A stretch of 64,000 bases of DNA. Source: an uncultured Spirochaetota bacterium. Lineage in GTDB: Bacteria > Spirochaetota > UBA4802 > UBA5550. The position numbers are program-made. Shown piece after piece: positions 33,001 to 36,000 of this stretch (position 1 is its first letter; every line of letters begins with the position of its first letter). Location of the stretch: assembly GCA_963827275.1 (NCBI GenBank), contig CAWHAA010000001.1, positions 96,001-160,000 on the forward strand, read 5' to 3'.

Positions 33001-36000
33001 GAGCCCCCATGACCTGCTCCGGCATCTGCAAAAGACCGAAGGGGACCTGGGCAGGACTAAATCATTTCCCAAAGGGCCGCGGACCATCGACCTCGACATA
33101 TTGCTTTACGACAACATCATCATGAATACCGACGACCTTATTATTCCCCACCCGGAGATTAAGAACAGGGAATTCGTATTGAAGCACCTTCTCGAACTTG
33201 AGCCGGACATCACGGACCCGGCAACGGGAAAAAAATACCGGACACTGTCATAAGGGCCTCACGCCCGCACGACCGGGATCTCGTCCCACCGCGTGGTATA
33301 TCTCCCGGAAAGAAACTCGCGGCGCATCCGCCAGGGCTTCGCGCTCCCCTCTGCCGCAAAGCTCAGGGTATGGCGCCCCATCTCCCGGTTGACGCGGTCC
33401 ACCGCCTGCATCAGGCGGCGGGTGCGGTCCGTGTCATGCAGGCCGCTGAAAAGGTCAGGCTGCGCGTCTTCCTCGGGAAGTATTTCGCAGAGCATCACCC
33501 CCGCCTTCTTGTAGGAATATCCCTGCCGGTAGATCCGATCGAGCAGCCGTACCGCAATGCGGATAAGGTGAGGGGTATACGACGAGGGGACCGGCAGGTC
33601 GCAGCTGATGCCGTTGGAATACTGCGGGTCGTTCTCCCTGAACCTGTTGGTGGACAGGAACACGGTGACGGAACCGGCCGCGCTTTTCTGGGCCCGGAGC
33701 TTTTCCGCGGCCCTGCTCATATACGCGGCAACGGCCTCGCGCAGCTCATCCAGGCGCTCAACCGGCCGTCCAAAAGAGCGGGAACTCACGATCCCCTTCT
33801 TCGGCGCGGGGAGCTCGTCGAGGGGAATGCACGGCACCCCCCGCAGTTCCCACACGGTGCGGAGACCCACGATCGTCATGTTGCGCCGCACCCACCTGTC
33901 AGACGCGTCCCTGAGCTGCGCGGCAGTGGTGATGCCGTTCCGCCGGAGGAGGTCGCGATACTGCCGTCCCACGCCCCACACGTCGCCGGCGTCCGTGGCC
34001 GCAAGGGTTCTGTCCATACCGGCGCTGTCGGTGAGCCCGAAAACCCCCTGGCACGCAGGGTCCCTCTTGCCGATCCTGCTGGCCAGCTTCGCCAGGGTCT
34101 TGGTGGGAGCGATACCGATGCTTACCGGTATACCGGTCCACTGGTTCACGAGATCACGCACCAGCCTGCCGTATTCCACCGGGTCGCCGCTCATTTCCCG
34201 CATGGAAAGGAATGCCTCATCGATGGAATAGATCTCCATCTCCGGCGAAAACCGGGCCAGGCAATCCATGACCCGCCGCGACATGTCACCGTAGAGAGAA
34301 TAGTTCGATGAGAAAACGGCCACATGGCGGCGCCGGAGAAGCTCCTTCACCTTGAAAAAAGGGGCGCCGAAGGGAAGCCCCATCTCCTTCACTTCATTAG
34401 AGAGGGCAACCACGTTGCCGTCATTATTGGAGAGCACCACGACGGGCCTTCTCCTCGTCTCCGGGCGGAAGACCCGTTCGCAGGAGACGTAGAAATTGTT
34501 GCAATCGACAAGAAAAAACAGGGTTTTCATATGATTGTTATTGCCGGAGAATCTTTTCGAGGTTGGGAGGATAGCCCCAGAGGAATTTCCAGCATACAAT
34601 GTTATCAATAAACTCCTTGATAACAATATAATTTTTATACTGATAGTTATCGGTAGTATTATTTTTCAGGCACTTATTCAAAAATTTCTTCACAGCATAC
34701 GCAAGAATTAAAGAAACCGACATCTTGAGCAACTTCCTCAAATCCAAAAAATACTCATAATCATCCATTCGTAGCTGTACATGAAACGTGCGCCACTCAT
34801 CCGGCCTGCCCTTCCTCTGGTACCTGACCATGCTGCCGATACGCGCCGGATCAGGAATATCATCCATAGCTTTTTTTATAAGAAGTATGATCATCTCGGA
34901 GCGAGATACGCCCCTGGACCGTGCCGCCAGGGATATCCTGTCTAAAATGCGCGCATTAATATTGAGTGTCGTCTCCATAAATTTATCCTCATCCGTAGTA
35001 TTGAATTTAAACACTATGGGATACGAACGGGACAATCAAAATGATAAATTTTTTCTATGCGCCTCAACAGTCAGCATCTTATTTGAAACTATGAATCACA
35101 TGCACCACCACGCCCCAGACCTCAAATCCCGTTTCGCCTGTCACTTCAAGCGGTGCGTAGTTCGGGTTTTCCGAGGCAAGATATACACGGCCGCTTTCCC
35201 GGATAAAACGCTTTACCGTAAGCTCTCCGTTCAGGATGGCGATAATAATGCTCCGGTCCCGGGCAGTCTCGGCCCTGTCCACGACCAGGACGTCGCCGGA
35301 ATGAATCCCCGCTCCCGTCATCGATTCGCCCGACACACGCACGAAAAAGGTTGCTGACGGATGCCTGATGAGAAGCTCGTTCAGGTCGAGCCCTTTCTCC
35401 ACATAATCATCGGCCGGAGAAGGAAAACCGGCAGGGATCCTGGCCGCAAACAAGGGGAAACGCGCCGGGCCGCATGCACCAATCCGATGTATGGATGCTA
35501 TAGAGCCGTCGCGGGGTGCCGATAGTGTCTCCGCCGTATGCATGAAAGCCCCTCCTGGCCGGGGTCAGAGTAACATCATACCGCCAATATAAATAACCGG
35601 AATAATATGTCAACATATGTTTAGTATTATATTTTTAATACTACCCGTTTTCAGCGAAAAGCTTGCAATATTATTTGATTTATCAATATTTGACATATCA
35701 AATATTTAAAGCGAGAAAATATGGATGATAGACTCATTTTTCTAATATCGAAAGCGGGACATGCCCTGAAAAATTATATGAAGCGAGAGTGCATAAACGA
35801 AGGTGTTACAATTTCCTCGGCGCAGGCGGGTATGCTTATGGCCCTGAAGATGCGCGATGGGCTTTCAATGAACCAGATGAGTGAAATAATTTCTATTGAT
35901 AACGCCGCAGTCACACGTCACGTGGATGATCTTGAACGAAAGGGGCTGGCCAGGCGGGAAGCGGATGCAGGCGACAGGAGAAAAACCATTATCCGCATTA

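Follow-up and report, generated by a model that had tools for sequence, protein, structure and literature searches.

A dispersed tandem ribbon-helix-helix gene of uncultured Spirochaetota: a transposase-less cassette in some relatives and a candidate regulator carrying a palindrome in its own reading frame

In an uncultured Spirochaetota bacterium (assembly GCA_963827275.1), a small AT-rich gene stands between umuD and umuC, and similar genes stand singly elsewhere in the genome. How did these copies come to lie among host genes, and what might they do there? A survey of this genome had described them as TraY-like paralogues, each with its own promoter, and had proposed that they spread as a one-gene mobile unit without a transposase. 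We studied the copy in a window of 64,000 nucleotides (contig CAWHAA010000001.1, positions 96,001 to 160,000; Table 1) together with its paralogues and its homologues in related genomes.

Table 1. Features in and around the umuD-umuC interval, numbered from the first nucleotide of the window
Feature	Position	Strand	Description
P0001, tandem-RHH gene	34538..34978	-	146 aa; predicted model with RHH1 at residues 2-39, RHH2 at 62-104 and a C-terminal beta-hairpin at 117-134
GAGGA, resembling a ribosome-binding site	34986..34990	-	Read off the sequence, upstream of P0001
Promoter-like element AAAAnTTTTT-n17-TTCGTAT	35017..35056 (core 35021-35027)	-	Matrix match; common to radC, comM, ssb, ORF6N, integrase and Y1 transposase genes
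Motif A (ACCGATAACTATC)	34642..34654	-	Intragenic near-palindrome encoding T-D-N-Y; candidate operator
Motif B (GGGGTCAGAGTAA)	35561..35573	+	Y1/TIRYT-associated repeat upstream of umuD; outside the RHH unit
umuD	35079..35543	-	Upstream host gene, flanking and outside the unit; Pfam PF00717 (Peptidase_S24), E 6.7e-32
umuC	33259..34530	-	Downstream host gene (IMS), flanking and outside the unit; Pfam PF00817, PF11799, PF13438

P0001 is, as the survey had it, a real multicopy gene placed between umuD and umuC. Its open reading frame was confirmed, umuC starts 7 nt past its stop codon, and tblastn and phmmer found ten full-length copies in the genome and otherwise only noise, the paralogues being 38-68% identical to P0001 by tblastn. 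The other copies also abut host genes, and the same umuD-X-umuC layout occurs in the relatives G007, G009, G011 and G016. The AT-richness reported for the copies is equally clear: their coding sequences have a GC content of 0.354-0.431 against 0.56 for the genome, and a value of 0.431 or less is found in just 23 of 1880 long open frames. Over the 0-40 nt that follow the stop codon, the sense strand of RHH copies is mostly C-rich and G-poor in all seven groups, with a skew of +0.17 to +0.75 over the first 20 nt (0.00 for long open frames); this stretch is possibly a Rho-utilisation site. Close to umuDC, the window also contains an open frame beginning MCGRF (36631-37293, minus strand), which we take to be an SOS-response-associated peptidase (SRAP)-like gene.

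The AF2 model of P0001, computed from 43 sequences (pLDDT 84), contains two strand-helix-helix units in one chain, followed by a C-terminal hairpin, and thus predicts a tandem RHH protein. The best Foldseek matches were chains of the F relaxosome at E 6.8e-3, with nothing under 0.001, so that the weak E-value already flagged by the survey persists; VIA-align nevertheless ranked chain 9f0x_E first (Z 10.9, rmsd 2.8, 98 residues aligned), ahead of AvtR, DndE and single-chain Arc. From its size, we infer that 9f0x_E is TraY, which a preprint (bioRxiv 10.1101/2024.12.19.629322) describes as a monomeric tandem RHH protein, three of which bind DNA in a train. Residues 1-105 of P0001 share their fold with F-plasmid TraY, AvtR, DndE, MJ0366 and VirC2 (Z 10.9), but P0001 differs from TraY-type proteins in its low identity (12%), its additional C-terminal hairpin, and its chromosomal and multicopy state. 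At the sequence level, P0001 weakly matched RHH_5 of Pfam (E 6.6e-4) and had no match in NCBIfam, while the family profile matched CopG (E 6.6e-4) and, weakly, MazE/VapB; a match to PHROG 876 'transcriptional repressor' had an E-value of 9e-5. As AvtR, DndE, single-chain Arc and CopG match too, the fold is that of tandem RHH proteins in general, with nothing specific to conjugation. The likeness to TraY proposed by the survey therefore stands for the fold, whereas a part in a relaxosome is unsupported: P0001 lies next to umuD and umuC, and the other copies next to host genes, instead of an oriT and a relaxase gene within a conjugative element. The family had no match in a plasmid search, and a weak test found no fusions to longer proteins.

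Motif A offers a candidate target for such a protein. It is present, exactly or with one base changed, within the open frame of all ten copies, where it encodes part of the linker. The D-N pair is written GAT AAC in 10/10 copies and is preceded by ACC in nine. Among 47 copies of the genus, codon use is almost invariant at these positions (ACC 37/38, GAT 46/46, AAC 46/46, TAT 36/36); in contrast, AAC makes up about a third of Asn codons elsewhere in those genes, where the codons of invariant columns do vary (Y53 0.51, N123 0.59). As judged from this codon use, motif A is shown to be under selection at the DNA level inside the RHH reading frame. Two residues, T4 and H66, one for each recognition strand, are conserved at 90% or more, which makes sequence-specific DNA binding through the beta-ribbon a candidate function; H66 is substituted in the expanded subfamilies of G030 and G037 that have no motif A.

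Beyond the gene, motif A occurs 215 times in the genome against 0.25 expected, in 92 clusters, with array spacings of 22 and 42-44 bp and the same orientation in 119/123 cases. Thirty-five of 121 genomes of the class have at least ten A sites and all 35 have the RHH gene, whereas none of the 64 genomes without the gene has more than one; these counts are inflated by sites within the RHH genes themselves and come from kin genomes that are not independent. Many gene-carrying genomes have no A site at all, which indicates that the family does not require it. In G023, H66 is kept, yet the gene holds just the GATAACTAT core and the genome a single A site. An extra A site lies within 160 nt upstream of 16/55 copies, about ten times the frequency elsewhere in those loci (0.025 per 160 bp). 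Among the 29 viral-contig loci retrieved with the A pattern, none had an RHH gene.

The window itself contains A/B arrays at 25753-25852 and 50757-50938 and single A sites near 37401 and 39326, and at C7:270754-283758 motif A recurs with a 288-bp period in two large repeat-protein frames. The origin-proximal part of this genome (contig C2, with dnaA at 79 kb) and that of G016 (its contig C2, 0.71-1.92 Mb, with dnaA at 1.42 Mb) are almost devoid of both A sites and RHH copies. B sites too are nearly missing near the origin here, and G016 has a second poor zone at 3.6-4.3 Mb.

The RHH gene was found in 32/41 relatives and in 57/121 members of the class (one of them marginal), and the family profile finds 800 clusters at 50% identity. 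Most genomes have either no copy or many, and the maximum of 19 given by the survey is far exceeded, with 78 copies in G030, 51 in G037, 39 in G035 and 21 in G023. In a phylogenetic tree, whose deep nodes are weak, these four expanded subfamilies form lineage-specific bursts.

Mobility is shown in G023 and G037, where inverted repeats starting GGG(T/C)GTGA enclose the promoter together with the gene. We examined 30 copies (15/51 of G037 and 15/21 of G023; two of them truncated). Both ends were present in 18, and in ten of these the flanking 8-mers matched at 7/8 positions or more (four at 8/8), as against 0/306 swapped pairs. The ten units with a target duplication measure 658-674 bp and the elements overall 658-688 bp (about 670 bp). 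The same ends bound MITEs of 130-335 bp in other spirochaete genomes, several with perfect 8-bp duplications, delimit complete ISKra4 elements and are present on L262, L264 and L334; the first of these, a metagenome locus, contains a complete 1510-bp element encoding an ISKra4 transposase (NF033572, E 1e-83, above the cut-off). G031, which belongs to the same family as G037, has an element that is 89% identical to this one and flanked by a perfect duplication. With a single transposase query, matches were obtained in 4/41 genomes, none of them in the fragmented assemblies of G023 and G037 or in the genome studied here. These ends and duplications show that the cassette has the make-up of a non-autonomous ISKra4 (Mutator-like) element in G023 and G037, where an ISKra4 DDE transposase would mobilise it in trans. 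The proteins of the two genomes fall into different subfamilies, which suggests two captures. The ends and target repeats that the survey had left undefined are therefore defined for these two genomes, though they are absent at the copies of this one.

In its terminal inverted repeats of about 21 bp and its 8-bp target duplication, the unit resembles ISKra4 (p-MULT4, Mutator-like) elements; it differs from them in that the transposase is missing and the sole cargo is a regulator gene, intact, under selection and provided with a promoter. So-called transporter IS are a known kind of passenger-carrying IS derivative, and plant Pack-MULEs provide an analogy for a gene-carrying non-autonomous unit, one that applies to G023 and G037 and not to the copies here. 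Passages of PMC3942029 already describe passenger-carrying IS derivatives, and they also report additional genes in ISKra4 elements and insertion close to promoters. TTGACA-like boxes lie 27-34 nt outside the ends in 15/30 matches (flanks L151-L167, L111-L137, L182-L211 and L334), unlike the 13-17 bp given for minus-35-like boxes in those passages.

Other routes were also considered. IS256 and the IS1595-like element were rejected as mobilisers since their ends differ, IS1 was not found in the 16 genomes searched, and retroposition was rejected because promoter and upstream DNA are copied along with the gene. In G030, the region common to the copies runs from about -85 to +55 and has no terminal inverted repeats; in G035, it runs from about -75 to +85, and the similarity between pairs of copies extends raggedly beyond it. 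As neither forms a unit bounded by inverted repeats, more than one route spreads the gene. Some otherwise diverged copies of G030 have identical tracts of about 400 nt (L084 and L086) and 240 nt (L087 and L089), which reflect either gene conversion or assembly chimeras.

The copies of the present genus have a different history. Nine of ten G009 copies are at sites occupied here; six of the 17 G016 copies share a site with this genome, seven lie where the flanking genes are adjacent here, and four make up the rest. Thirteen orthologous pairs gave dN/dS values of 0.10-0.25, with high dS (saturated in one pair), compared with 0.13 for umuC and 0.04 for umuD; recent paralogues gave 0.07-0.28. None of the ten copies has terminal repeats or a target duplication beyond the swap control, nor does any lie beside a match to the inverted repeats described above. 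An unbiased search for such repeats and duplications likewise yielded nothing above the swap control in this genome, genus g1, G030, G035 and G036, but it missed several true cases in G037 and is thus insensitive. Taken together, the sequence comparisons show copies in this genus that are old, fixed, devoid of ends and under purifying selection, and the simplest guess is that they originated from transposons whose ends have eroded. The idea of a mobile unit without a transposase hence holds for the family, through G023 and G037, but is not borne out by the copies found here.

Sites that are empty in one genome and filled in another do exist, as the survey had noted, but one of them testifies to loss. 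At C5:229358-229490, two A motifs enclose what is left of a copy, a hairpin-coding segment; they are spaced by 105 bp, as are the internal and the terminal A motif in an intact G009 copy. This 'empty' site is evidently the deletion scar of an eleventh copy, and the differential loss that the survey had admitted as an alternative has thereby gained one real case. Stop codons interrupt two of the ten G009 copies.

In the arrays, A often alternates with motif B at a distance of 20-23 bp, which is reminiscent of REP/BIME mosaics, and B fits the TIRYT motif GGGGWSAS as given in a passage of PMC3733652. In contrast to REP/TIRYT repeats, A co-occurs with the RHH gene rather than with Y1 genes and is selected within coding sequence: B flanks 5/6 Y1 genes of this genome and A none of the six. 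B is moreover distributed independently of the RHH gene, with 17 B sites and no gene in G022, and 55-103 A sites and no B in G017, G021 and G033. No Y1 gene was detected in G021, an assembly 89% complete. On this co-occurrence, we rejected a Y1/TIRYT system as the partner of A.

To what regulon might the cassette belong? A promoter matrix (AAAAnTTTTT-n17-ATTCGTATA) was built on 36 upstream regions of relatives' RHH copies, some of which are orthologous to copies here. Nine of the ten copies in this genome score at least 17, so that the survey's claim of a promoter for each copy holds with the exception of the copy on contig C9, which is outside the top 70 matches. Other top matches lie upstream of radC, ORF6N, comM (Mg-chelatase-like), ssb, an integrase gene, a Phd antitoxin gene, queC and Y1 transposase genes, and one precedes what is, from its sequence, presumably a UvrD-like helicase gene. 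The scores of five of the six Y1 genes range from 13.9 to 22.6, and the gene that we take to be recA reaches 13.6. Motif A is near just 4/16 of the best non-RHH promoter matches, as against 4.6% of AT-rich control windows with A or B. The expanded G030-A and G035 subfamilies have a sigma-70-like promoter instead.

A promoter common to radC, comM and ssb is what one would look for in a competence regulon, and the promoter set resembles one, although a DNA-damage regulon would fit the same gene list. Passages of two reports are relevant here, one (PMC4774983) in which radC and comM count among the competence genes and the other (PMC8638851) reporting that Leptospira radC is induced by peroxide. 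Judged by titles and the beginnings of abstracts, none of the papers listed on competence in spirochaetes dealt with such a regulon. The same competence-type promoter precedes a tyrosine integrase gene with a Phage_int_SAM_4 domain (C5:39545-40663). Two IS1595-like elements of 1113 bp, 99.9% identical, are present at C5:288979-290091 and C5:316127-317238, and one of them interrupts comM.

A possible relative of the family exists in the same phylum. DUF1564 is a family of paralogues in Leptospira, and the ESM Atlas pointed to it with a score of 0.90. The Pfam model PF07600 gave no match at E<=10 in this genome and is absent from the Pfam matches of P0001. A first HHalign comparison was off-register (probability 7%), whereas richer profiles aligned colinearly over 102 columns, including both RHH units and the YQ motif (P 5.8e-4, probability 29%). 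A DUF1564 model of only pLDDT 64 shows the same order of elements, hairpin included, and has the same top fold match, in register. Like the RHH genes, DUF1564 genes are dispersed and multicopy (3-51 matches per genome), but they frequently have an N-terminal extension and their linker has no T-D-N-Y motif. One member is named 'mobile element protein' in UniProt, according to a passage of PMC12457778. The literature searched did not mention DUF1564 by name, and Leptospira with PF07600 gave passing mentions only. The RHH family is thus probably a remote sister of DUF1564 that fails the PF07600 test, and common ancestry without membership seems to us quite likely. In G179, which has 51 DUF1564-like copies, the loci L362-L384 show tandem upstream repeats with GTGGGAACTCC; their promoter has a comparable A/T tract, and their 3' ends are ragged and rich in A.

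We lean, if only slightly, towards a hitchhiking and partly domesticated regulator cassette whose tandem-RHH product would bind its own palindrome, motif A. The cassette would consist of a competence/ssDNA-type promoter read by an alternative sigma factor and of a tandem-RHH gene with an internal A; without a transposase of its own, it would multiply by hitchhiking and then be retained. The RHH protein would be made along with the competence/DNA-repair regulon and could bind A in its own reading frame and promoter, acting by autoregulation or as a roadblock. It may also bind some 90 other A clusters, a few of them beside the comM, ssb and ORF6N promoters, and so damp or tune the regulon, while the phased arrays would allow cooperative binding or serve as titration sites. 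That the protein represses or blocks its own copies and some regulon neighbours in this way has, in our estimate, a little more than an even chance.

The most serious alternative, which we regard as rather unlikely, is that A belongs to another factor, such as a recombinase, a nuclease or a host regulator, and that the RHH gene only carries a site promoting copying, conversion or deletion. The scar on C5 has the form expected if the upstream A had recombined with the internal one, A alternates with a TIRYT repeat in BIME-like arrays, and many RHH-positive genomes have no A. However, a 13-bp direct repeat can be deleted without a dedicated enzyme, A is never abundant where the gene is absent, and none of the six Y1 genes is flanked by it. 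A TraY-like accessory role, in which RHH bound to A would help a Y1/TIRYT HUH nuclease to nick at B, the A-B pair forming a mini-oriT, would account for the best fold match, for the promoter scores of the Y1 genes and for the regular A-B distance. It is nonetheless improbable, considering the independent distribution of B, the Y1-less G021, the general nature of a fold common to AvtR, DndE and MJ0366, the failure to find fusions, weak as that test was, and the identification of a DDE enzyme family as the mobiliser.

We give equally little credit to an ordinary regulator family that expanded long ago and became patchy by differential loss only. It agrees with the sites shared with G009 and G016, with purifying selection and with the one proven loss, but the inverted repeats and target duplications in two genera refute it for G023 and G037, and both the lineage-specific bursts and copy numbers of mostly zero or many speak against it. 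Orphan antitoxins, each copy being kept by neutralising a toxin, are more improbable still. RHH domains are common in antitoxins, MazE/VapB matched weakly and one of 43 members matched BrnA; yet no toxin gene is adjacent at the window locus, where the neighbours are umuD and umuC, or in the ISKra4-type units, whose 658-688 bp provide no room for a partner, and copies are lost or broken, as in G009.

Returning to the regulator cassette, it is tempting, as a more speculative extension that we hold to be doubtful, to see these genes as selfish one-gene elements that have no mobility enzyme and are turned on together with the machinery for competence. RHH-bound A would then shield their loci from deletion by transformation, or throttle comM and ssb, and selection on copy number would lead to repeated capture by unrelated transposition routes; DUF1564 might be of the same kind. 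The conflict behind such protection from curing by transformation is modelled in a passage of PMC4774983.

In the freely accessible main texts searched, the RHH family, motif A and an ISKra4-bounded regulator cassette were all undescribed, and nothing joined IS1595, passenger genes or MITEs with RHH genes; a paper retrieved for RHH paralogues of Leptospira had no bearing on these genes. The supplementary tables of PMC3942029 may list the ISKra4 end type of the G023 and G037 units. New here are the ISKra4 ends, the intragenic palindrome A and its link to the gene, the old and purified copies of this genus, and the probable relation to DUF1564. In G023 and G037, the cassette would represent a bacterial parallel to Pack-MULEs, in which a gene is amplified while intact and under selection, and for which the mobilising transposase family is identified. 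Because the palindrome lies within the RHH gene, it links a repeat found throughout the genome with a candidate protein partner encoded by that very gene. For DUF1564, whose many copies in Leptospira are so far unexplained, a predicted fold and a testable role can now be offered. Finally, these observations sketch a competence-like regulon of uncultured spirochaetes that mobile elements may exploit.
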